Notes under the pieces: model-generated
The model's database searches: none
What the model saw: only the letters and a program-made list of their open reading frames with translations
What the model was told of the DNA's origin: nothing
DNA from: an uncultured bacterium
Lineage (GTDB): Bacteria; Chlamydiota; Chlamydiia; Chlamydiales; SM23-39
Direction: 5' to 3'
DNA: 64,000 nucleotides
NCBI GenBank assembly: GCA_963716985.1
Contig: OY970323.1
Span: 128,001 to 192,000 of the forward strand
Shown here: piece by piece, positions 30,719-59,563 of the stretch
Numbering within the stretch: the first letter of the stretch is position 1
How the letters are laid out: every line of letters starts with the position of its first letter
Program-made: the position numbers and the translations under genes

Positions 30719-31786
30719 ATGAAAAATATCTCTTGCGCAGCAGTCAATTTTGGCTTGGATGAGCGGCTTTTGGATCATATTGCCCCCTTTGCCGCCCTTC
30801 TAGACATCCCCCTTCACGTGACCGAGGAAAAAAATTTTGCACTCTTAAAACGATATTACCCCTTTGTAAAGGCGATCTTGCACAAACCGTCTGAAGTGAG
30901 TGCATCTTTTTTTGAAGATGTGGATGTTTTGTTTCAATCCACCTTTTGGCGAGAGGAAGAAAAGTCTTTTTTTTCCTACAAGAGGAAAAAAAAACTCCTC
31001 TTTGCCTATCTTCCCCATGGGAATTCCGATAAGGGATATCATGCGCCTATGATGGAGCTGGCGCGAGAGCAAGATTTCCTGCTGGTCTATGGAAACCAGA
31101 TGATCGAGCGCCTTCAAAAACAGGGAATTTGGAAGGGAGTCAAACAATGGGCAGCCCTTGGTAATTATCGAGAAGCATTGTATCGAAGACATCAAACTTT
31201 TTACGATGAGATCGTGGAAAAAGAGATCTTTTCCTCCTTGAACAATAAAAAAAAGACCTGTCTTTATGCGCCGACCTGGCAGGATCCGGAACGCTCTTCC
31301 TCTTTTTTTTCAGAAACTAGGCGTTTGGCTGAGGAAGTGAGCGATTCGTTCAATCTGCTCATTAAGCCCCATCCTCTTTTAGAGGAAAGAGATCCCTCTC
31401 TTTATCATGCGATGCTCGGCCTTTGTGAAAGAAAAAAAAATTGTACAATTGTGGAAGGAATGCCCCTGATCTACCCGCTTCTGGCTAGGTCGGATCTTTA
31501 TTTGGGAGATTTTTCTTCGATCGGATATGACTTTCTTACATTTCAAAGACCGATGTTTTTCTTTGCTACAAAAGAAAGAAGGGACGAAAATAGTTTGCAG
31601 CTTAGGACATGCGGTTTTGAAATTCCTGCAAATGAAGAGATCTTTCCTTTCATCGAAAAAAATCTTTGCCTATTTGATGAATCGATGAGAGAAAAGCAGA
31701 GGCAGATGGAATTCTTTTCCTTTGGAGAAAAAAGAGATCCTTTGCAAATTAAAGAGGATATTGTTCATCGTTTACAACAAGTTTGA
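30719..31786 (+). CDS. CDP-glycerol glycerophosphotransferase (TagF-like) family protein
   Basis: PHGNSDKG, YAPTW, KPHP and GDFSSIGYDF. Confidence 0.8.
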   Translation: MKNISCAAVNFGLDERLLDHIAPFAALLDIPLHVTEEKNFALLKRYYPFVKAILHKPSEVSASFFEDVDVLFQSTFWREEEKSFFSYKRKKKLLFAYLPHGNSDKGYHAPMMELAREQDFLLVYGNQMIERLQKQGIWKGVKQWAALGNYREALYRRHQTFYDEIVEKEIFSSLNNKKKTCLYAPTWQDPERSSSFFSETRRLAEEVSDSFNLLIKPHPLLEERDPSLYHAMLGLCERKKNCTIVEGMPLIYPLLARSDLYLGDFSSIGYDFLTFQRPMFFFATKERRDENSLQLRTCGFEIPANEEIFPFIEKNLCLFDESMREKQRQMEFFSFGEKRDPLQIKEDIVHRLQQV

Positions 31787-32810
31787 GATGCTCGATTTGC
31801 GAACGCTCAGAAAAGGTCTCATTGTAAATTTTCTTTTGAATCGCACAAAAAGAATCTTCTTTTTTATCGAGGAAGGCTTTGATTTTTTTCAGAAAATCGA
31901 CGGCATTTTCTTTAGAAAAAACATGGCCGCACCGGTGGAGTTGCAGACTATTTTCATCCCTCCTCTCTTCTGCGGCAAAGAAAAACATGGGCTTTTGAAA
32001 GGTCAGAAAATCATATCCGATCGAAGAGGCGTCTCCGAGATAGGCATCTACAAAATGTAAAAGCGGGTAGATGACGGGCAGATCTTTTAAGAGAACTAAA
32101 CTTTTTGTTTTTCGCACTCTTTGATCGATCTTCTCCATTTCTAGAGGATGAGAGGAAAAGAGATGGGGATGGGGTTTGATTATGAGGTTTACCTCTTCGT
32201 TAAAAGAGTCTATGAGGGGATCTAACAATTGCTCGAAGGAAGAGTTTTTTTCGGAATCGCTCCAGGTCGGTGCATAAAGAATGGTTTTTTTGGGGGACAA
32301 AGAAGAAAAAATCTCTTTTCGTAAAAGTTTCTCGTAAAAGGCTTTGTTTTCAAGAAAATAGCGGAAGCGATAGTTGCCGACTATGAGCTGTTTGTTAACG
32401 ACTCCTTTTTCCTTCAAAAACTCTTCCATCCGTTTCCCATAGACCAGTAAAAGTTCTTCTTGGGAGAGTCCTTCCATGAAAAAAGAAGACCTTCCCTTGT
32501 CGGAGTTGCCATGAGGACACCAGATGGTATGAAGCTTTTTCTCTAGAAGCAGCTGCGGAAGAAAAAAGTCGCTATCGAAGAGCGGCCTTGGCATGCAGGT
32601 GATAAGTTGATCGAAATTTTGAGATGCATAAAAATAGACCTCTTGAGGATCGCAGCCGATCACATGGATCTTGGGGTAGAATTTTTTTGCCAGGGAATAG
32701 AGACTCTCGTCATCCACGATCAGAGGAATGTTCAAAAGAGAAGATAGGGGCGCCAAATGGTCCAAGTGGTGAAGCGAGTGTCCATAAAGGATGGCGGCAG
32801 ACCGCTGCAT
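31749..32810 (-). CDS. CDP-glycerol glycerophosphotransferase family protein (convergent paralogue)
   Basis: PHGNSDKG, YAPTW, KPHP and GDASSIGYDF. Start re-called at MQRSAA. Confidence 0.8.
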   Translation of the reverse strand: MQRSAAILYGHSLHHLDHLAPLSSLLNIPLIVDDESLYSLAKKFYPKIHVIGCDPQEVYFYASQNFDQLITCMPRPLFDSDFFLPQLLLEKKLHTIWCPHGNSDKGRSSFFMEGLSQEELLLVYGKRMEEFLKEKGVVNKQLIVGNYRFRYFLENKAFYEKLLRKEIFSSLSPKKTILYAPTWSDSEKNSSFEQLLDPLIDSFNEEVNLIIKPHPHLFSSHPLEMEKIDQRVRKTKSLVLLKDLPVIYPLLHFVDAYLGDASSIGYDFLTFQKPMFFFAAEERRDENSLQLHRCGHVFSKENAVDFLKKIKAFLDKKEDSFCAIQKKIYNETFSERSQIEHLKLVVNDEQYPL

Positions 32811-44753: not shown

Positions 44754-45176
44754 ATGATCTATCAAAGAGAAAAAAGAGCGTTCTCTCTTTCCATTTTGGA
44801 AATCATGATTGTCATTCTTTTGATTTCTATCATAGGGGGCGCCATTGGGTATAATCTAAAAGGCAGTCTTGACAAGGGAAAAGCGTTTAAAACCGTACAA
44901 GCGAAAGAGCAGCTTCGAGATCTTCTTCTTCTCTGTGTGGCGGAAGGGAAAGCAACCATGGAAAGAGCCGCCAAAGAACCTGAGCAATGTTTGAAACAGA
45001 TGGACCTTGCAAAGAAACCAGACGAGCTGGTCAAAGATGGATGGGGCGTTCTTTTTGAAATTAAAGTGGAAAGCGGGAATGCCGATTTTAAAATTACATC
45101 CAAGGCGCATGAGAAATATATCAAAGATCATGAGGAGAAAAAAGAAAAGAGCGCACCTAAAGACGATCAGACATGA
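44754..45176 (+). CDS. Major pseudopilin-like protein (GspG-like)
   Basis: Prepilin-type N-terminus SILEIMIVILLI and DGWG motif. Confidence 0.8.
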   Translation: MIYQREKRAFSLSILEIMIVILLISIIGGAIGYNLKGSLDKGKAFKTVQAKEQLRDLLLLCVAEGKATMERAAKEPEQCLKQMDLAKKPDELVKDGWGVLFEIKVESGNADFKITSKAHEKYIKDHEEKKEKSAPKDDQT

Positions 45177-45703
45177 TCCTCTTTCGGAAGATCGCTTTTT
45201 TCTCCCTGATGGAAATCCTCATCGTCCTCTCGCTGATCCTTCTTGTGGGCAGCGTTTCCACCTTTTATATGCATGATGCTTTGCGCCTGCGCCGTTTTGA
45301 AGCCAATCGCAAAAGCCTCCAATATATGATCTGCTTTTGTCGCGAGATGGCGATGACTCACCAAGTGGATATCCAATGGGTCATCGAACAGGATCTTCGC
45401 GTCCCTAATCTGGTTTGTCGGATTTTTTGTGAAGAGGATCAAAAAGCCCTTTTGTATTTTGCAAATAAAAAGAGTTCCTTTGCGCCTCTTTTTTTTGCCG
45501 GACCAAACAGTTCGCCTTCCTATGCGTGCACGTTTTATTCTTCCGGTTTTGTGGAAGCCAATATGCAGATTTCAGATGGGAAAAGAACATGTGCTCTTTC
45601 TTTTCCGTTTTTTATCAAACCAATCGATGGGTCCAAACCACCGCATCCTTTCTCATTTAAAAAAAAGAGAGAGGTTTTTTTTGTGCCCAATCGGGGATCC
45701 TAA
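45173..45703 (+). CDS. Minor pseudopilin-like protein
   Basis: FSLMEILIVLSLI prepilin motif and ATGA overlap with the previous gene. Confidence 0.75.
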   Translation: MILFRKIAFFSLMEILIVLSLILLVGSVSTFYMHDALRLRRFEANRKSLQYMICFCREMAMTHQVDIQWVIEQDLRVPNLVCRIFCEEDQKALLYFANKKSSFAPLFFAGPNSSPSYACTFYSSGFVEANMQISDGKRTCALSFPFFIKPIDGSKPPHPFSFKKKREVFFVPNRGS

Positions 45704-46161
45704 AAATCCCCTTGTTAAAAAAAAATGTTTTTTATATACTAAACACACTTTTTTATTTACGAAGGAGGTTGAGAATATGTTTAAGCTTGTTGAAAGTGAT
45801 CGTCCGCCGTCAAATGTTACGGGGCTTCCCGGTATTGGTATTAGAGGAGAAATGGTGGTCTTTGGAGTTTTGGCGTGTGTTGGTATTGGCGCCATAGGAG
45901 CTCCGGCTGTAAGTGCTATAGGCGCCGGGGTTGGGATCCTTTACGCGGTTGGCAATGTGTACGACCGTATTATCGCAAAATGGGATGCGGACAGGACTGC
46001 GCAAAAAAAGGGTCGAACAAGTCCTTTGGGCATTTGTGCAATTTGTGTGATCGTTGCTGCCGGAACTACAGCTATTGTGAATTTTGTGAGTTTGAAAATT
46101 TTTGGGAATGGGTCTGATTCTCGAAAATCGTAGTCAATAACCGTTGTTTGTGTTTGAAGGA
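45517..46161 (+). repeat. Direct repeat copy 1 (pseudopilin 3' end plus small membrane gene)
   Basis: Near-identical to 47348-47988. Confidence 0.92.
45777..46133 (+). CDS. Small glycine-zipper membrane protein, copy A
   Basis: AAGGAGG RBS, 118 aa, Gly/Ala-rich hydrophobic segments. Confidence 0.75.
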   Translation: MFKLVESDRPPSNVTGLPGIGIRGEMVVFGVLACVGIGAIGAPAVSAIGAGVGILYAVGNVYDRIIAKWDADRTAQKKGRTSPLGICAICVIVAAGTTAIVNFVSLKIFGNGSDSRKS

Positions 46162-46191: not shown

Positions 46192-46506
46192 ATGTGCTTT
46201 GTTGATGGTGAGTATCGGTTTTCGCATGAAAGACATCGCGGGAGATTTTCGCCAGACGATGGATTTATCTTTGGCGGCATAGTGGCGCAGCTTGTTGATG
46301 TTGCTGTATTTATATTCACTAGCCCGGGAACGTGGTTCGCTACTCAGGCTCCTGCTCCTAAAGCATCTTTTGCTAAAAGAGTTCTTCTTTCTATGCGTGC
46401 ACGTTTTACTCTTCCGGTTTTGTGGAAGACAAAATGCAAATCTCAGATGAGAGAAGGGAATGATTTCTTTCTTTTCCGTTTTTTATCAAACCAATTGATG
46501 TTATAA
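46192..46506 (+). pseudogene. Chimeric/truncated paralogue of the CaaX gene
   Basis: N-terminus (DGEYR...VDVAVFIFTSPGTWFA) matches the 46520 gene, then runs into a degenerate copy (46389-46500) of the pseudopilin-derived repeat. Confidence 0.6.
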
Positions 46507-46519
46507 AGGAGGTTGTCTT

Positions 46520-47020
46520 ATGGGCTTTTTTATTGATGGTGAGTATCGGTTGCCTCATAATAAATATCGCAGGGGATCTTCAGACGATGGATTTGGCTTG
46601 GGCGGTATGGTGGCGCTGATTGTTGACGTTGCTGTATTTATATTCACTAGCCCGGGAACGTGGTTCGCTCCTTCTCCTGCGCCGCCACCGAGTCAAGGAT
46701 GGCTTTCGTCAATCTTTTTTTCTCGTCCTGCACCGCCACCGAGTAGAGGATGGTTTTCTTGGATTTTTTCTTCTGCACCGCCGCCTCCTCCCAAGGGATG
46801 GTGGGCCCGCCTCACTGCTTCGGCTCCCGAAGAGACGGGGGGATTAGATGGAGGTGGAAACAGACATCCAGATAACTACTATCCGGGATATCATTACCCC
46901 CTACCTACAAAGAAAGAGCGTCAGATACATCAGCCAAGAAATGAGCCGGGGCCCGTAGATGTTCTCCCTCCGCCGTTGGATCTGCCAGATGACGGCCTAA
47001 CATCTTGCTCGGTCATGTGA
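46520..47020 (+). CDS. Proline-rich membrane protein with C-terminal CaaX box (CSVM)
   Basis: AAGGAGG RBS, one hydrophobic segment, three APPP-x-GW repeats, ends TSCSVM*. Confidence 0.75.
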   Translation: MGFFIDGEYRLPHNKYRRGSSDDGFGLGGMVALIVDVAVFIFTSPGTWFAPSPAPPPSQGWLSSIFFSRPAPPPSRGWFSWIFSSAPPPPPKGWWARLTASAPEETGGLDGGGNRHPDNYYPGYHYPLPTKKERQIHQPRNEPGPVDVLPPPLDLPDDGLTSCSVM

Positions 47021-47050
47021 TAGTTTTGGATTTTTTTTCTTGCGTAAATT

Positions 47051-47088
47051 AAGATAGGCTTCTTATGGGATAGCCTATCTTTTTTTTT
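47051..47088 (+). terminator. Rho-independent terminator (copy 1)
   Basis: AAGATAGGCT...AGCCTATCTT plus T-run. Confidence 0.8.
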
Positions 47089-47347
47089 AAGTAGATGGCT
47101 TTTTGAAATTTTTCTTATCTCGATTTATGAGGGCAGTGCGATTGCACAAGAAGTGGATTTGATTCAGGTAGAAAAAGATTCTCCGGCTTATCAAAAATGG
47201 CCCTCCCCGCCAAAACTTCTGAGGTTGTCTTCAGAAAATCAATCTGCCCAAAACACAACAAATGTAGTGCCGCAAACCATTTAATTTTTTTGCAACACGC
47301 TTATCTATAGCAACATGCGTTTTTTTGGTGTCAAGCTCGGGAAAGAG

Positions 47348-47988
47348 TTCCTATGCGTGCACGTTTTACTCTTCCGGTTTTGTGGAAGCCAATATGCAGA
47401 TTTCAGATGGGAAAAGAACATGTGCTCTTTCTTTTCCGTTTTTTATCAAACCAATCGATGGGTCCAAACCACCGCATCCTTTCTCATTTAAAAAAAAGAG
47501 AAGTTTTTTTGTGCCGGATCGGGGATCCTAAAAATCCCCTTGTTAAAAAAAATGTTTTTTATATACTGAACCCGCTTTTTTATTTACAAAGGAGAGTGAG
47601 AGTATGTTTGTGTCTGTTGAGAGTGATCGTCCGCCGTCAAATGTTACGGGGCTTCCCGGTATTGGTATTAGAGGAGAAATGGTGGTCTTTGGGGTTTTGG
47701 CGGCTGTTGGTATTGGTGCCATAGGAGCTCCAGCTGTGAGTGCTATAGGAGTCGGGGCTGGGATCATTTATGCGGTTGGCAATGTATACAGCCGTATTAT
47801 CAAAAAATGGGATATGGAGAGGACTGCGCAAAAAAAGGGTCAAACAAGTCCTTTGGGCATTTGTGCAATTTGTGTGATCATTGCTGCCGGAACTGCAGCT
47901 GTTGTGAATTTTGTGAGTTTGAAAATTTTTGGGAACGGATCTGATTCTCGAAAATCGTAGTCAATAGCCGTTGTTTGTGTTTGAAGGA
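47348..47988 (+). repeat. Direct repeat copy 2
   Basis: Near-identical to 45517-46161. Confidence 0.92.
47604..47960 (+). CDS. Small glycine-zipper membrane protein, copy B
   Basis: AAGGAG RBS, 118 aa, paralogue of 45777..46133. Confidence 0.75.
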   Translation: MFVSVESDRPPSNVTGLPGIGIRGEMVVFGVLAAVGIGAIGAPAVSAIGVGAGIIYAVGNVYSRIIKKWDMERTAQKKGQTSPLGICAICVIIAAGTAAVVNFVSLKIFGNGSDSRKS

Positions 47989-48053
47989 AAGAGAGGAGCG
48001 GGAAAGATCGCGCCGGATACGGCGAAATTACTCCAGTTTGCGTAATCCAGTGA
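47985..48053 (+). pseudogene. Startless 3' gene remnant ending in CaaX (CVIQ)
   Basis: Reads RKERSGKDRAGYGEITPVCVIQ*. The stop is followed by the same TAGTTTTGG 3' UTR as the CSVM gene. Confidence 0.55.
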
Positions 48054-48083
48054 TAGTTTTGGATTTTTTTTCTTGCGTAAATT

Positions 48084-48121
48084 AAGATAGGCTTCTTAAG
48101 AGATAGCCTATCTTTTTTTTT
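48084..48121 (+). terminator. Rho-independent terminator (copy 2)
   Basis: AAGATAGGCT...AGCCTATCTT plus T-run. Confidence 0.8.
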
Positions 48122-48168
48122 AAGTAGATGGCTTTTTGAAATTTTTCTTATCTCGATTTGGAGGGCTC

Positions 48169-50766
48169 ATGAAGAAGTTGATGATCTTTACTTTTCTTTT
48201 TTTTCTTTCACAGTTTCTCTTCGCTGAAGATCTAGCGGGATTAAAACCAAGACAGCCCAATTGGCGGTCCGACACGGTTTCGATTCATCCGAATGGAAAT
48301 CCCAAAGAGGTTATTTTTTATGAACCAACTCTTGAGGGAAAGGAAATTCCCGTAAAAAAGGTCACGTTTTATGAGGGGAGTGCGATTGCACAAGAAGTGG
48401 ATTTGATTCAGGTAGAAAAAGATTCTCCGGCTTATCAAAAATGGTCCTTTCCATTGGTCCCAAACGGAAGATGCGTGGATCTCTTTGAATCCGGCAAAGT
48501 GCAAAAGGTTTCTTTCTATGACAAAGGGTTTTTGGAAGGAGAAGTGATTGGCTATCATTCGAATGGAAACATCGCTTCCAAGTTTTTCTATCAATCAGGA
48601 GAACTTTCGGGACATTATGAGACTTGCTATGAAGAGGGGGGAAAAAAGGAGGAGGGGAGTTATAGCAGAGGGAAGCTTGTCTCGGAAAAGGTGGCCTACA
48701 CTCCCGCGCAGGAAAAAGTCTCGCTTTATACCTATGTGGATGGTCTTTTGGAGGGAAAGGGAACCGAGTGGTATCCCAACGGAGGCGTCAAAAACGAATC
48801 CTACTATCATCAAGGATTGTTGCATGGAAATGAGAAGAATCCCGCCTTCATTTTTTATGATGAGAAGCACGCGATCTTAGAAGTGCTCGATTTTAGGGAA
48901 GGAAAAGCTACGGGCCTTCATATCAAATACCATCCTAACGGCAAAGAGAGTTATCGCGTCCTTTATAAAGAAGGGAAGAAAGAGGGAAAAGAGTACTTTT
49001 TTTCTCCCGAGGGAAAGATTATTGGTGCGGGAGAATTTCAATCGGGCAAAGCGATCGGGAAGCATGATCTTCACCATCCGAATGGAAAGCTTTTCTATGA
49101 AAAGGTCTATGACTCTTCGGGAAATCTCCTTCGTCCCATTGTGGAATATGATGCGGAAGGAAATAAGGTAAGAGAATACTCCCTTAAAGAAGAGCGTCTT
49201 GAAGGGAAATATTGGGAATATCAAGAAAAAGGAGCGCTCCGTTTGGAGCATTTTTATTCAGAGGGACAATTGCAAGGGGAGCAAAAGGAGTTTTTTCCCT
49301 CCGGGCAGATAAAAATTCGCTGTTTTTACAAAGACAATAAACGAGACGGTCTTTATGAAGAATGGCATGAAAATGGAACGTTGATCGCAAAAATGAACTT
49401 CAAAGATGACCGGATGGATGGAGTTTCTCAAGAATGGTTTGCTTCCGGCAAGCGCAAAAGAGAGTCCTGTTTTTCTAAAGGAAGCCCCACCGAAAGATTT
49501 TCTGAATGGTTTGAAAATGAAAAAGAAAAGCTTGTGATGGAATGGAAAGAGGGAAAGAAATTGGGAATACATAAGATTTGGGATGAACAGGGAGACTTGC
49601 TCTTGGATGCTCAATATAAGGAGGATCTGTTGGACGGAGATTGTTTTTCTTGGTTCTCCAAGGGAAAGCCAAAAGAAAAACTTCATTATGAAATGGGCAA
49701 GATGCATGGAAAACAAGAGTGGTTCTACCCGAACGGAAACAAACAGAGGGTTGCTTTTTACGACCATGACCTTTTCGATCAGAGACTGCAGGCATGGTAT
49801 GAGGATGGGTCGGAACATCTCGATCAGACCTTTTCTAAAGGCCGGCCTATCGGAGATCAGCATGACTATTATCCCCCCTCTTTTTGCGAACATTCACAGA
49901 GCAAACAGCACGTTCGATGGTTTCACTATGATGACGAGGGAAAAATGCAGGGAGAGCAGAAGACCTTTTTCCCCAACGGAAAGGTCGAAGCGCTTGTGAC
50001 CTACGAGCATGGAGAGCTTCACGGAGTGAAATCCCTTTGGGACCGCGAAGGCAATCTTCTCGAACAGGCGACTTACGCAAAAGGAAAGCTTGAAGGAGAG
50101 TTTTTTCAAAAGCTTCCTGACGGAAGAGAGGTCTATTTCACCTATAAAAACAATTTCAAAAACGGCCCGCATCGTATTTTTTATCCGCAGCAAAAAGAAA
50201 AGGAGAGAATCAAGGCAATCCAGGCAAATTATAAAGATGATCTCTTGGACGGAAAGGTAGAAGAGTATAATCCAGAGGGAGTTTTGATGGCCGAATCCCT
50301 CTATTGCAAGGGAAAAAGGGAGGGGCTCACAACGCTTTTCTCTCCCCAGGGAAAGAAATGGATGACGGTCGCATTCAAAGGGGATGTAAAAGAGGGGCCA
50401 TGCACGGAGTATTCTCCCGAGGGAAAAATTCTCAAAGAGGTTACTTTTGTCAACGACCTGAAAGAGGGCGAGGAAAAATCTTTCTTCCCTAGCGGGTCTA
50501 AAGCCTCTCTCTCCATTTATAAAAAGGGACTTTTGGAGGACAAAAGCTTCTATTGGAACGAAAAGGGAGTCCTTGTTTTCGAAGGAGCCTACCAAGCCGG
50601 CAAGCGTCATGGGAAGATGATGAAATATAATGAAGAGGGAAAGCCTATTCTGGAACAAAATTTCTTGAACGACGAGCTCCATGGAGTCAAAAAGAAATAT
50701 GAGAAATCGGGAGAGGTTTTTCAGGTTTTCTATGACCATGGAAATAAGGTAGAAAAGAAGAAATAA
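48169..50766 (+). CDS. Exported MORN-variant repeat protein (YwqK-like repeats)
   Basis: Signal peptide MKKLMIF...LFA and many G..(H/E)G....(Y/W)(Y/H).NG repeats throughout. Confidence 0.88.
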   Translation: MKKLMIFTFLFFLSQFLFAEDLAGLKPRQPNWRSDTVSIHPNGNPKEVIFYEPTLEGKEIPVKKVTFYEGSAIAQEVDLIQVEKDSPAYQKWSFPLVPNGRCVDLFESGKVQKVSFYDKGFLEGEVIGYHSNGNIASKFFYQSGELSGHYETCYEEGGKKEEGSYSRGKLVSEKVAYTPAQEKVSLYTYVDGLLEGKGTEWYPNGGVKNESYYHQGLLHGNEKNPAFIFYDEKHAILEVLDFREGKATGLHIKYHPNGKESYRVLYKEGKKEGKEYFFSPEGKIIGAGEFQSGKAIGKHDLHHPNGKLFYEKVYDSSGNLLRPIVEYDAEGNKVREYSLKEERLEGKYWEYQEKGALRLEHFYSEGQLQGEQKEFFPSGQIKIRCFYKDNKRDGLYEEWHENGTLIAKMNFKDDRMDGVSQEWFASGKRKRESCFSKGSPTERFSEWFENEKEKLVMEWKEGKKLGIHKIWDEQGDLLLDAQYKEDLLDGDCFSWFSKGKPKEKLHYEMGKMHGKQEWFYPNGNKQRVAFYDHDLFDQRLQAWYEDGSEHLDQTFSKGRPIGDQHDYYPPSFCEHSQSKQHVRWFHYDDEGKMQGEQKTFFPNGKVEALVTYEHGELHGVKSLWDREGNLLEQATYAKGKLEGEFFQKLPDGREVYFTYKNNFKNGPHRIFYPQQKEKERIKAIQANYKDDLLDGKVEEYNPEGVLMAESLYCKGKREGLTTLFSPQGKKWMTVAFKGDVKEGPCTEYSPEGKILKEVTFVNDLKEGEEKSFFPSGSKASLSIYKKGLLEDKSFYWNEKGVLVFEGAYQAGKRHGKMMKYNEEGKPILEQNFLNDELHGVKKKYEKSGEVFQVFYDHGNKVEKKK

Positions 50767-56453: not shown

Positions 56454-57262
56454 TGTCTGAGAGTTTTATCGCTATTTTTGATTCAGGACTCGGAGGGCTT
56501 ACCATCCTGCGCGAGGTGATGCGCATCCTTCCTTCTGAAAATCTTCTCTATTTTGGCGACATGGCGCGCGTTCCCTATGGGGGAAGAAGCCCAAAGACAA
56601 TCGTGCGCTATGCAATGGAGAACATTCGTTTTTTAATGCAGCGGCGCATCAAGTGTCTTGTCATTGCTTGCCATACCGTATCTGCCTATGCTTTGCCGGA
56701 TCTGCAAAGAGAATTTTCCCTTCCGATCCTTGGCGTCATCGAGCCTGCCGTTGAAGAAGTTCTCAAAAATAAGAGCGCGCGCCACATCCTCATTTTAGCA
56801 ACTGCGGCAACGATTGCGTCAAACATCTATCCAAAGCTGATTTTGGAAAAAAGGCCGCATATGAAGATTACTTCGATTGCAGCCCCTCTTTTTGTCCCGC
56901 TTGTGGAAGAAGGGGTGATTGCGCATCCTGCGACCGATCTCATCGTAAAAGAGTATTTACGAGCGGTCGAAGGACAAAAAATAGATGCGGCCCTTCTCGG
57001 CTGCACCCATTACCCATTAATCAAAGAAGCGATACAGAAAGGATTAGGTCCCGGCGTTTCCTTGATTGAGGCAGGCCCATTGACTGCAAAGAGTCTTTTC
57101 GATCTCCTTGATGCACGGGGGCTTCTTTCGCCATCCAAAAAAAGAAAACTCTCTTTTATCGTCACGGATCATCGGGAAAAATTTTGCAGGATGGCCTCTT
57201 CCTTTTTGGGACAAGCAATTGATCCTAAAGATGTTGAGGAAGTGGACGTCACTTCCTTATAA
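56453..57262 (+). CDS. murI: Glutamate racemase
   Basis: FDSGLGGL, PYG, ACHT and LGCTHYP. Confidence 0.95.
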   Translation: MSESFIAIFDSGLGGLTILREVMRILPSENLLYFGDMARVPYGGRSPKTIVRYAMENIRFLMQRRIKCLVIACHTVSAYALPDLQREFSLPILGVIEPAVEEVLKNKSARHILILATAATIASNIYPKLILEKRPHMKITSIAAPLFVPLVEEGVIAHPATDLIVKEYLRAVEGQKIDAALLGCTHYPLIKEAIQKGLGPGVSLIEAGPLTAKSLFDLLDARGLLSPSKKRKLSFIVTDHREKFCRMASSFLGQAIDPKDVEEVDVTSL

Positions 57263-57468
57263 TAGAGCCGCCTTTTCTGTGGGTCCGCTTCGTTGCAAAA
57301 ACCCACCGATCTGCCCATAGAGGATCGTATAGGAAGAGAAAATCGACCTTTTCCCGAAAACTCCTCGCATCAAAAAGGGAGATACAACTCTTTTTTAAAA
57401 GAATCTTTCAAATAAAAATTTATCAGATTATTCTATTTTATGTGGTTGCACTCAAACGCGGGGAGAAT

Positions 57469-58209
57469 ATGGCTTCCAAAAAACGCATTTTGCTCATTGA
57501 GGATGAAGAAGATATCGCTTCTCTTATCAAGCTTCATGCAGAGATCTTCGGTTATAGGCTTTACGTGGAAGTAGATGGGGTCAATGGCTTTCGCGCTATT
57601 GAAAGAGAAAAGCCGGATCTGGTCCTTTTGGATATCATGCTCCCCGGAGAAAATGGATTTGATATTTGCCGCAAAATGAAAAGCTCTGCATCTTTTCGAA
57701 AAATCCCGATCATTATTATATCTGCTAAAACGCAGGAAATCGACATGATTTTAGGGCTGGAGCTTGGAGCAGATGATTACATGCCCAAGCCTTTTTCTTT
57801 GCAACTGCTTTTTTCTAAGATCAAGGCCCTGCTCAGACGCACCCAGGAAAAGGGGAAAGAAAAAAAGATCTTTGCTTTTGGAGATTTTCTTCTGGACACC
57901 GATCGATTCCTTTTCAAAAAAGAGAACAAGAATATTGCGCTGACTCTATCGGAATTTGGTATTTTGCGGCGCCTTTTGAGCAATCGGGGAGAGGTTCTTT
58001 CGCGAAGCCAGCTGCTCGACGATGTCAATAACGATGAGGATTTTATCATCGATCGCAACATTGACGTGCACATCGCATCTTTAAGAAAAAAACTGGGCCT
58101 TCATTCCGAGTGGATCGAAACGGTTCGCGGGATCGGCTATCGCTTTACGGAAGAGGAGAGGCCAAGCCCGAGGAAAACAAAGGCCGCAAAAGAAGATGCA
58201 AATCATTGA
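57469..58209 (+). CDS. OmpR/PhoB-family response regulator
   Basis: IEDE, DLVLLDIMLPG, GADDYMPKPF, IDVHIASLRKKL and ETVRGIGY. Confidence 0.93.
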   Translation: MASKKRILLIEDEEDIASLIKLHAEIFGYRLYVEVDGVNGFRAIEREKPDLVLLDIMLPGENGFDICRKMKSSASFRKIPIIIISAKTQEIDMILGLELGADDYMPKPFSLQLLFSKIKALLRRTQEKGKEKKIFAFGDFLLDTDRFLFKKENKNIALTLSEFGILRRLLSNRGEVLSRSQLLDDVNNDEDFIIDRNIDVHIASLRKKLGLHSEWIETVRGIGYRFTEEERPSPRKTKAAKEDANH

Positions 58210-58210
58210 T

Positions 58211-59563
58211 TTAATCCTGCGCCTCAAGCAGTGCCTTCTTGAGGCGCTCAATGCGCGAGAGGTCCAGACGAATCAATATTTTTCTGTGTTTGGACATCTG
58301 GACATGTCCGCGTTTGCCTTTGATGCGGCTTAAGAATTTTCGCTCGACGATGAAGATGTGCGACTCTTTTTGCTCTTTTGCCTTGCTATAGAAGAGGGCA
58401 AGGTGCGCTGCGTCGAGAATCGACTCTTCATCCATTGCGCTGTTTTTTTTTGTCTTTAGAATCACATGGGATCCCGGATCATCGGCGACATGAAGCCAAA
58501 GATCGGAGCCCTTGGCAAGAGAAAATGTTAAGCGGTCATTTTCCTCGTCGTTGCGGCCGACGAAAATCTTTTGGCCGGATGCAGAGGTAAATTCTAAAAA
58601 CTCTCTTTTTGCTTTTTCTTTTTGCGGGAAGAAAGAGGGGTGTTCTTTTCGGAAGGAGACAAGTGCATGCAAGGTAGGGATTTGTTCGACTTTTTTTAAA
58701 AGATTTGCACACTCCAGAAGAGCATGTCTTATTTTTTCTTTTTTTTCGCAGAGGAGCTCCTCTTCTTTTTTTAAACGAGAGGCCTTTCGAAAGAAAGCGG
58801 CCACCTGCTCCGACGGGGAGAGGGAGGGATCGAGCAGCAGGGTCTGTTTGGTATGCGTCTGCCAATCTTCAAGCTCGATTTTTTTGCATCCTTTTTGCAG
58901 CAGATGAAAATGGCTTTTTAAGAGATGGGCGTCTTTAAGCGTTTGTTCAAAAAGAGGCGTTTTTTTCTCCAGCTTTTGTAGTTCTTTTTCCCATCTTTTT
59001 TTTCGGGAAACAAGAATTTTGACTGTCTCTTCTTTTTCCTGTTCAAATGAAAGAATCTCCTCCGCCTGCTGATAAAGAGATTCTAGGTTGGAGAGGAAAG
59101 AGGGGTCGACTTCGCTTAAGAGATGTTCTTTGGGCTTTGGAGGAGGTTCGTATACTTTCTTGTCCATCGGGACATAGCTTAAAAAAATGAGATTTTCCTT
59201 ACCCGCGAGATAGAGATTTGCTCCTCTTGAAAAGAGCTCGAAAATCAAGGAAAATCCATTTTCAAAACGCAATTGAAGAATGCGATCTTCGTTCAGAAGA
59301 GCGAGGGAGGTAATCTTTTGATTCTTGAGATACGATTCGATCTTTTTGCAAAAAGGAGTGGAGCGGGAAGGAACTTTTTTTTCTTGGAGATGAAAACGAA
59401 CAAAGGGATGCTTTAAGCAGACCAAAAGAGAAATTTTTTGGGAAAAATGGAGCAGCCATTTGGCGGGGCCGATTTCTCCGATAGAAGAGAGGTTGTTCCC
59501 TTGCAGTTTTGGGCCGATTGTTTTTGCAAGATAGAAAATTTGGCTATAAGAGAGATCTTTCAT
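58211..59563 (-). CDS. NFACT (RqcH/FbpA-like) protein
   Basis: DRILQL, FELF..GAN, VGRNDEENDRLT and WLHVADDPGSHV. Confidence 0.88.
   Translation of the reverse strand: MKDLSYSQIFYLAKTIGPKLQGNNLSSIGEIGPAKWLLHFSQKISLLVCLKHPFVRFHLQEKKVPSRSTPFCKKIESYLKNQKITSLALLNEDRILQLRFENGFSLIFELFSRGANLYLAGKENLIFLSYVPMDKKVYEPPPKPKEHLLSEVDPSFLSNLESLYQQAEEILSFEQEKEETVKILVSRKKRWEKELQKLEKKTPLFEQTLKDAHLLKSHFHLLQKGCKKIELEDWQTHTKQTLLLDPSLSPSEQVAAFFRKASRLKKEEELLCEKKEKIRHALLECANLLKKVEQIPTLHALVSFRKEHPSFFPQKEKAKREFLEFTSASGQKIFVGRNDEENDRLTFSLAKGSDLWLHVADDPGSHVILKTKKNSAMDEESILDAAHLALFYSKAKEQKESHIFIVERKFLSRIKGKRGHVQMSKHRKILIRLDLSRIERLKKALLEAQD

Follow-up and report, generated by a model that had tools for sequence, protein, structure and literature searches.

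Host prenylation of injected bacterial proteins is established in Legionella and Salmonella (PMC2916131, PMC13081727, PMC4951486). The Pel/CMP effectors and AnkB of Legionella are described as host-prenylated substrates of the Dot/Icm system (PMC2916131, PMC13081727), AnkB being processed by host FTase, RCE1 and ICMT (PMC2916131), while SifA and GtgE of Salmonella are host-prenylated effectors of a T3SS (type III secretion system; PMC4951486, PMC13423502). A comparison of AnkB between Paris and AA100 describes a C-terminal label (a CaaX box or another motif) that is swapped on a kept body (PMC5506055). Two tetrapeptides relevant to the present work have been characterised in other proteins: CSVM is the farnesylation box of Rheb, where farnesyl alone gives weak membrane binding (PMC7255682), and with Arabidopsis PFT, CVIQ outdid three other boxes in kcat/Km (PMC3017772). 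For environmental chlamydiae, we found no description of host prenylation in our literature searches; two in-silico surveys may list chlamydial candidates. PMC2916131 includes a survey of 20 pathogens and an endosymbiont, and the terms CaaX, prenyl and farnesyl have zero occurrences in the main text of PMC4209131.

Here we examine a window (the whole stretch of DNA analysed) of 64,000 nucleotides from an uncultured member of the Chlamydiales, whose genome we refer to as G000 (assembly GCA_963716985.1, contig OY970323.1, positions 128,001 to 192,000). Between a gspH-like gene and a gene for a MORN-repeat protein, it carries an orphan gene ending in CSVM and a short open frame ending in CVIQ. 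Like Legionella Pel effectors and AnkB, the CaaX proteins of this genome have CaaX ends, number a handful per genome, have unrelated bodies (including F-box and ankyrin proteins) and come from a producer with an injection system. They differ in that the producer is a chlamydia with a T3SS, that the orphan is a low-complexity protein with its own hydrophobic helix, that no sequence similarity to the Legionella proteins was found, and that secretion and prenylation are here putative. SifA and GtgE offer a precedent for T3SS substrates with a free C-terminal CaaX box; unlike the orphan, they are folded and characterised proteins, and no homology was detected. The label exchange between AnkB alleles has a counterpart in the Ank and LRR families of G000, although the AnkB swap is a frameshift between alleles whereas that in G000 lies between paralogues. 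With human Rheb, the orphan shares an identical CSVM and the lack of a polybasic or palmitoyl second signal (PMC7255682), but Rheb is a GTPase and the tetrapeptide is the only sequence in common. Finally, like the environmental chlamydiae with expanded F-box, LRR and Ank families (PMC4209131), G000 has such paralogue families.

Genome and organisation of the gspH-MORN slot

G000 is a single 2.07-Mb contig and is 99.5% complete. The chlamydial origin proposed in a preliminary description of this DNA is borne out by the best gspG matches, which are mostly to Chlamydiae, Chlamydiales, Parachlamydiales, Anoxychlamydiales, Rhabdochlamydiaceae and Simkaniaceae, with some to entries named 'bacterium' or Verrucomicrobia. 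The T3SS genes sctV and sctN score over cut-off (TIGR01399, TIGR02546), so that the producer has a system that injects proteins into the eukaryotic cytosol. The features of the slot are as follows.

45173..45703, plus strand: gspH-like pseudopilin gene, last of the gspD-E-F-G cluster and left anchor of the slot (ORF; present in 21 of 41 genomes)
45777..46133, plus strand: first copy of the small membrane protein (118 aa), which has two hydrophobic stretches and resembles Inc proteins by hydropathy only
46192..46506, plus strand: 5' paralogue of the CSVM gene, truncated to about 60 codons, which continues out of frame into a gspH 3' copy and lacks CaaX (82% nucleotide identity over 189 nt; 57% amino acid identity)
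46376..46500, plus strand: older gspH 3' fragment (copy a), with in-frame stop (85.6% to 45505-45629)
46505..46512, plus strand: Shine-Dalgarno sequence AAAGGAGG, 7 nt 5' of the ATG of 46520-47020
46520..47020, plus strand: gene of the 166-aa orphan, with a hydrophobic helix (27-43), three Pro/GW repeats that bear short aromatic helices, a disordered Pro-rich acidic tail and CSVM before the stop
47006..47017, plus strand: CaaX codons C-S-V-M, with the sole Cys of the protein (tetrapeptide identical to human Rheb)
47017..47134, plus strand: first copy of the duplicated block of stop, hairpin (terminator-like, with U-run) and MORN upstream region (96.6% to 48050-48166)
47118..47204, plus strand: internal MORN gene fragment, corresponding to 48362-48448 (95.4%)
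47207..47341, plus strand: filler DNA copied from G000:C1:293549-293684 (87.6%)
47348..47531, plus strand: gspH 3' fragment, copy b (nucleotide comparison)
47604..47960, plus strand: small membrane protein, copy 2 (88% amino acid identity to copy 1)
47989..48053, plus strand: CVIQ remnant, an open frame that has no start codon and finishes in GEITPVCVIQ (CaaX codons 48039-48050)
48050..48166, plus strand: stop, hairpin and MORN upstream region, copy 2 (96.6% to 47017-47134)
48169..50766, plus strand: MORN-repeat protein gene, right anchor of the slot (PF07661, E 3.6e-49; synteny)

Profile matches for gspD, gspE and gspF fall below curated cut-offs, and we infer the name gspH from the position and N-terminus of the gene, which has no family match in Pfam or NCBIfam. 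Duplicated blocks pair 45517-46161 with 47348-47988 (93.0% identical) and 47017-47134 with 48050-48166 (96.6%), and 47989-48049 is the sole non-duplicated part between them. The hairpin after the stop has -13.6 kcal/mol in both copies. The DNA 3' of both stops, hairpin included, aligns to the MORN upstream region of G001, a genome of the same genus, and is therefore not a cassette-specific UTR. Thus, of the preliminary claim that the CVIQ stop falls exactly at a shared 3' UTR, the position of the stop in duplicated DNA stands, but the supposed UTR is the ancestral upstream region of the MORN gene. Similarly, the picture of a cassette in two pieces overlooked a third, the truncated 5' paralogue at 46192. 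The two gspH 3' fragments have start points no more than 12 nt apart and two alleles in common that differ from gspH, a pattern that points to tandem amplification later eroded by deletions. An integron-like cassette was rejected, as no integrase or att-like repeat was seen. The gspH-MORN region is an insertion hot spot that was locally amplified and eroded.

Chlamydial Inc proteins are encoded by lineage-specific small hydrophobic genes in tandem clusters and have a bilobed hydrophobic domain. The 118-aa neighbours of the orphan resemble them by hydropathy, with two hydrophobic stretches, whereas the 166-aa orphan has one helix (27-43, in a low-confidence model) and hence not the bilobed form. 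Among 301 genomes, the 118-aa protein was found only in G000, and it has no Pfam or NCBIfam match; its two copies, both intact, give a dN/dS of 0.67, not significantly below 1.

Several repeats and elements were seen alongside these features. The source of the filler stops precisely at the start of a dispersed element bearing 124-bp inverted repeats (G000:C1:293549-294417), and these inverted repeats occur at more than ten places in G000. An Rhs/YD-repeat-like ORF, its translation judged by eye, lies near the filler source (L042:4854-7868, minus strand). Elsewhere in the window, 31499-31602 and 31939-32042 form a 104-nt inverted repeat, 81% complementary and 336 nt apart, which may be a small non-autonomous element.

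The CSVM gene

The hydrophobic segment, three Pro/GW repeats, Pro-rich tail and CSVM end first described for 46520-47020 are all present, the C-terminus reading TSCSVM before the stop. The 166-aa product has 28 Pro and 19 Gly and a single Cys, which stands at -4, and its hydropathy peaks at residues 24-42 (KD 2.2). Two of the repeats are APPP-xx-GW (51-nt units, 78% alike) and one is a shorter APPPPPK-GW. A single-sequence AlphaFold model, of low confidence (pLDDT 57, pTM 0.20), places helices at 27-43, 59-67, 76-82 and 94-97 with the rest disordered; the single 17-residue helix contains an Asp.

The ribosome-binding site (AAAGGAGG, 7 nt upstream) is graded strong, and together with the in-frame repeats, the paralogue and the terminator it makes 46520-47020 very probably a real gene. 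Its codon (hexamer) score is -7.3 and it was not called by the hexamer gene caller, while the dN/dS between its head and the 5' paralogue at 46192 is 0.69, not significantly below 1 (P 0.37). Counts in a promoter and terminator scan equalled those of shuffles, and the scan missed the hairpin after the orphan stop.

Searches for relatives returned little beyond the locus itself. Both the protein search of 1,746 candidates and that of 1.84 billion representative proteins gave two matches, the orphan itself and its 5' paralogue (57% amino acid identity), and there were zero homologues among 5,404 longer candidates. The gene was present in 1 of 41 and in 1 of 401 genomes, both times G000, the source genome, and without a match in Pfam, NCBIfam, PDB, Atlas or plasmids. 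Conservation of Cys at -4 could thus be compared in zero full-length homologues. We regard the orphan as probably functional and as carrying a credible putative farnesylation box: CSVM and CVIQ are, as the preliminary description held, farnesyltransferase signals, both being documented prenyltransferase substrates in other protein contexts only (PMC7255682, PMC3017772).

The CVIQ remnant

The frame 47985-48050 reads RKERSGKDRAGYGEITPVCVIQ, with the stop TGA at 48051 followed by TAG, which confirms the reading GEITPVCVIQ before the duplicated stop. It contains no ATG, GTG or TTG, and two stops lie between it and the upstream gene, so that the frame is untranslatable as present and the remnant does not share the translatable gene of host-prenylated effectors; read-through from 47604-47960 is ruled out by the same two stops. 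Because the stop lies inside duplicated DNA, its position is inherited and not independent evidence. What is independent is only the four codons before the stop and the homology ending there: that between the duplicated copies breaks at the last base of the last CVIQ codon.

As a chance estimate, 131,182 genomic 60-mers ending in G were read for C-terminal boxes. Cys at -4 occurred in 3,586, a loose CaaX in 314, a classical one in 159 and a strict one in 38, which puts the chance of a CaaX at the position of the remnant at 0.03-0.24% (strict to loose) and that of a classical box at about 1 in 800. This is a fair figure because the first gene singles out the position in advance, although it is softened by the box having been noticed post hoc. 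By codon score, the CVIQ frame is the best of the plus-strand frames (+1.4 versus -7.9 and -9.4), and one minus-strand frame scores +1.7.

The preliminary description had noted no obvious similarity between 47989-48049 and 46520-47020, and alignment upholds this (P 0.09 when 3'-anchored with 3,000 shuffles, 0.32 for local DNA and 0.19 for protein). Without the last four codons, P is 0.11-0.29, though the flanks are 93-97% identical; with these codons, against 800 other gene tails, P is 0.03-0.05. Its suggestion of two paralogous slots that both end in CaaX boxes therefore holds for the boxes, both of which are present, but the remnant has no detectable homology to the orphan. Nor does the remnant have a second genomic place in G000, where the best matches are 18 nt. 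Pattern searches of metagenome, genome and viral contigs, both exact and degenerate, were negative, and a DNA search of 103 genomes gave only short weak matches, all except one outside the remnant. A full-length gene ending in the CVIQ peptide, as might be looked for in relatives, was not found in G000, the 103 genomes or the metagenome, genome and viral contigs. We consider the CVIQ remnant probably the former tail of a deleted CaaX gene rather than a diverged copy of the orphan's tail.

The slot in relatives and support for the assembly

Among 80 related gspH-MORN loci, gspH adjoins MORN in 25, 35 have an insert, the flank of 10 shows no MORN, and the other 10 are too short. The slot of G001 contains two genes unrelated to the orphan, and Cys at -4 occurs in 0 of 102 slot ORFs across the 80 loci: it is a hot spot for insertions rather than a slot for CaaX genes. 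Its cargo is very varied in loci L053-L132 (insert in 35 of 60 loci with both anchors), and a pair of genes of about 153 aa and about 126 aa recurs in the slot of more distant families. Near the 5' end of the G001 MORN gene, there is a frameshift (L137:627-824), which is either a break in the gene or an error of assembly.

Peat and soil runs from four studies, one of which may be the source sample, contain near-identical contigs, 37 of 40 being at least 99% alike to the region. Short-read contigs bridge 46500/46501, the junctions of the MORN fragment and the filler, and 48049/48050; 47341/47348 and 47988/47989 were not bridged by 31 bases among the records listed. Sampled reads of four studies, with low and patchy cover, gave no alternative alleles at the locus. 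One low-depth contig joins 48101 to 47069, most simply as a chimera through 58 shared bases.

CaaX boxes across the genome

The genome-wide scan for C-terminal CaaX boxes proposed at the outset drew on the hexamer caller's 1,825 non-shadowed ORFs (80 aa or longer), with expectations from 40 shifted positions. A first classical pattern matched 8 ORF ends against 1.25 expected (987 shadow ORFs gave 2 against 0.95); as it had been written after seeing the hit list, the count was repeated under other definitions. Under C.[VILM][MQSACL], 9 of 1,825 ORF ends matched against 2.1 expected (P 4e-4), or 9 of the 32 Cys at -4 against 85 of 1,085 internal Cys (Fisher P 8e-4). A PROSITE-like pattern gave 13 against 5.7 (P 0.006), with one shifted position also at 13, whereas the counts were 5 against 2.6 (P 0.12) for two strictly aliphatic residues and 32 against 27 (P 0.2) for any Cys at -4. 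The enrichment thus appears under C.[VILM][MQSACL] but not under the last two definitions, and is definition-dependent. The carriers include Ank, F-box-like/LRR, LRR and Sel1 proteins, CIIS and CRVS proteins without Pfam match, the orphan, and two of the nine (TnpB and a 98-aa protein) that probably reflect chance. Five are located as follows.

G000:C1:1254210-1255313: ankyrin protein, CVVQ
G000:C1:1600835-1601629: F-box-like/LRR protein, CKIQ
G000:C1:1814973-1816616: LRR protein, CSLQ
G000:C1:267265-267687: 140-aa protein without Pfam match, GGGCIIS
G000:C1:2010279-2011829, minus strand: Sel1-repeat protein, KKKSKCCCSIL

The 98-aa protein presumably resembles a DNA-repair methyltransferase. 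TnpB ends CLVQ, probably by chance (G000:C1:55438-56574 plus, 56556-58214 minus and 1926728-1927222 plus, as a set of regions). Two otherwise unrelated genes end QSTTYCTRQ, one of them overlapping the TnpB end, which suggests that the element end supplies their C-termini.

The Sel1 protein has an orthologue in G001 (L135, G001:C51:34315-35931) that is 36% identical, with a diverged linker, and ends KKSSGCCTIL. This CSIL/CTIL pair is the sole case among the G000 CaaX proteins in which a predicted box passed a conservation test. Its tails, with basic residues, extra Cys and CaaL, bear what we take to be a typical geranylgeranyl and palmitoyl signature, and the pair is the best candidate for prenylation, ahead of the Ank, F-box and LRR proteins and the orphan. 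In the G001 homologue of the CIIS protein, the box is absent, as is CaaX in all six weaker Ank, LRR and Sel1 homologues in relatives (including L136). Within G000, 1 of 6 Ank paralogues and 1 of 5 LRR paralogues have CaaX, most of the others having basic-aromatic ends (LPKMWHW, RIISKFW); with the bodies kept, the box thus acts as one of several exchangeable tails. In other words, these families show the reverse of the earlier wording: the body is kept and the tail varied. The better evidence for host prenylation is the genome-wide set, not the gspH-MORN locus.

In two other genera (L143, L144), Sel1 proteins have NLS-like tails (PPCKRTRTDS, RPSKKARFKVPN) in place of CaaX. A lineage family of 18 members with an N-terminal NPW/NPF motif forms tandem clusters (G000:C1 12546-21255, 777444-779092, 1071830-1078264 and other sites), and two of its members end CPKV.

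Discussion

The explanation we favour, at about even confidence overall, is that of an amplified and eroded slot whose surviving orphan is a host-farnesylated secreted adaptor, with CVIQ as a lost CaaX tail. The gspH-MORN slot would have taken up a species-specific unit of a small membrane protein and a Pro-rich gene, with tandem amplification of the unit and erosion through deletions to follow; copies and breakpoints are visible, and their order is the part that we infer. The gene at 46520-47020 would be the single intact member left, and the truncated gene at 46192 shows that a divergent paralogue once existed. The CVIQ stretch is probably the 3' end, now untranslated, of a second CaaX gene that had the same stop and terminator and whose start was lost by deletion. 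The orphan product would most likely be a secreted, mostly disordered membrane adaptor, delivered by the T3SS and held on the inclusion or another host membrane by helix 27-43 and the aromatic GW helices. Lipidation of CSVM by host farnesyltransferase would be followed by aaX trimming and methylation, and the Pro-rich linkers could offer docking sites of the SH3, WW or EVH1 type. The acidic tail has neither a polybasic nor a palmitoyl second signal, so farnesyl would anchor it weakly, much as in Rheb, and a requirement for the extra helices would be consistent with this. That the orphan is secreted and host-prenylated seems to us, on balance, slightly the better bet. The favoured explanation as a whole draws on the RBS, in-frame 51-nt repeats, downstream hairpin and sole Cys at -4 of the orphan and on the T3SS genes of the genome; against it, the box would be inaccessible should the single helix be transmembrane and place the tail on the lumenal side.

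Other readings of the same evidence need to be weighed. The orphan might be a bacterial or inclusion-membrane protein with an incidental CSVM that is never prenylated, the duplication mattering only for membrane-protein dosage. About 2 of 1,825 ORFs are expected to end so by chance, as TnpB does, and the orphan already has membrane segments and no homologue for a conservation test; however, its only Cys stands at -4, a second box occurs at the sister position and most other G000 boxes are on eukaryote-like or orphan proteins, and we consider this reading unlikely. Distinctly unlikely, in our view, is a variant in which the orphan is a real CaaX protein and the CVIQ stretch is filler at a rearrangement junction, with a box by chance before an inherited stop. 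While the chance is only 0.03-0.24% at a position singled out by the first gene, homology stops at the final base of the last codon and the CVIQ frame is the best of the three plus frames, this variant can draw on the proven filler (47207-47341) and scrambled fragments of the locus, on the lack of a start codon, of homology to the orphan and of a source gene, and on a box noticed post hoc.

The preliminary description had proposed a diversifying family that keeps the CaaX box while the rest turns over; its strong form would be an actively diversifying cassette family, in which selection keeps the box while the coding body is exchanged at the slot. Two different tails on one stop and terminator, and two related heads behind one RBS, are in keeping with such a family, but a single intact gene is present, neither a recombinase nor a cassette bounded by repeats was seen, what the copies share downstream is the ancestral region upstream of the MORN gene, and no alternative allele appeared in the reads sampled from four studies at low, patchy cover. 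With an orphan that has no outside homologue, a remnant that cannot be aligned and Cys at -4 in 0 of 102 slot proteins from 80 related loci, a conserved CaaX cassette family is not supported, and we judge this reading improbable. Finally, the repeat structure could be an assembly artefact, as no listed contig spans the region, 47341/47348 is unbridged by the listed records and one contig joins 48101 to 47069. Against this, the copies differ by 3-18%, 37 of 40 contigs from four studies agree at 99% or better and contigs bridge several of the junctions, all of which makes an artefact extremely improbable.

The weight of the locus is limited because it offers a species-level orphan and a pseudogene fragment. 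More broadly, we see a tentative possibility, which we hold to be rather doubtful, of host prenylation at genome scale in this chlamydial genus, in which C-termini would be exchanged like address labels (a CaaX box, a basic-aromatic helix or an NLS-like tail) and the gspH-MORN sisters would combine a shared membrane-anchoring head with unrelated farnesylation-box tails, one alive and one just lost. The CaaX proteins of G000 are probably new candidates for host-prenylated effectors of the Legionella Pel/AnkB kind, judging from their sequences, and they form a short testable list: the Sel1 CSIL/CTIL pair first, then the Ank, F-box and LRR proteins and the orphan. If true, host prenylation would give chlamydiae a second route, besides Inc-type hydrophobic domains, to decorate host membranes.
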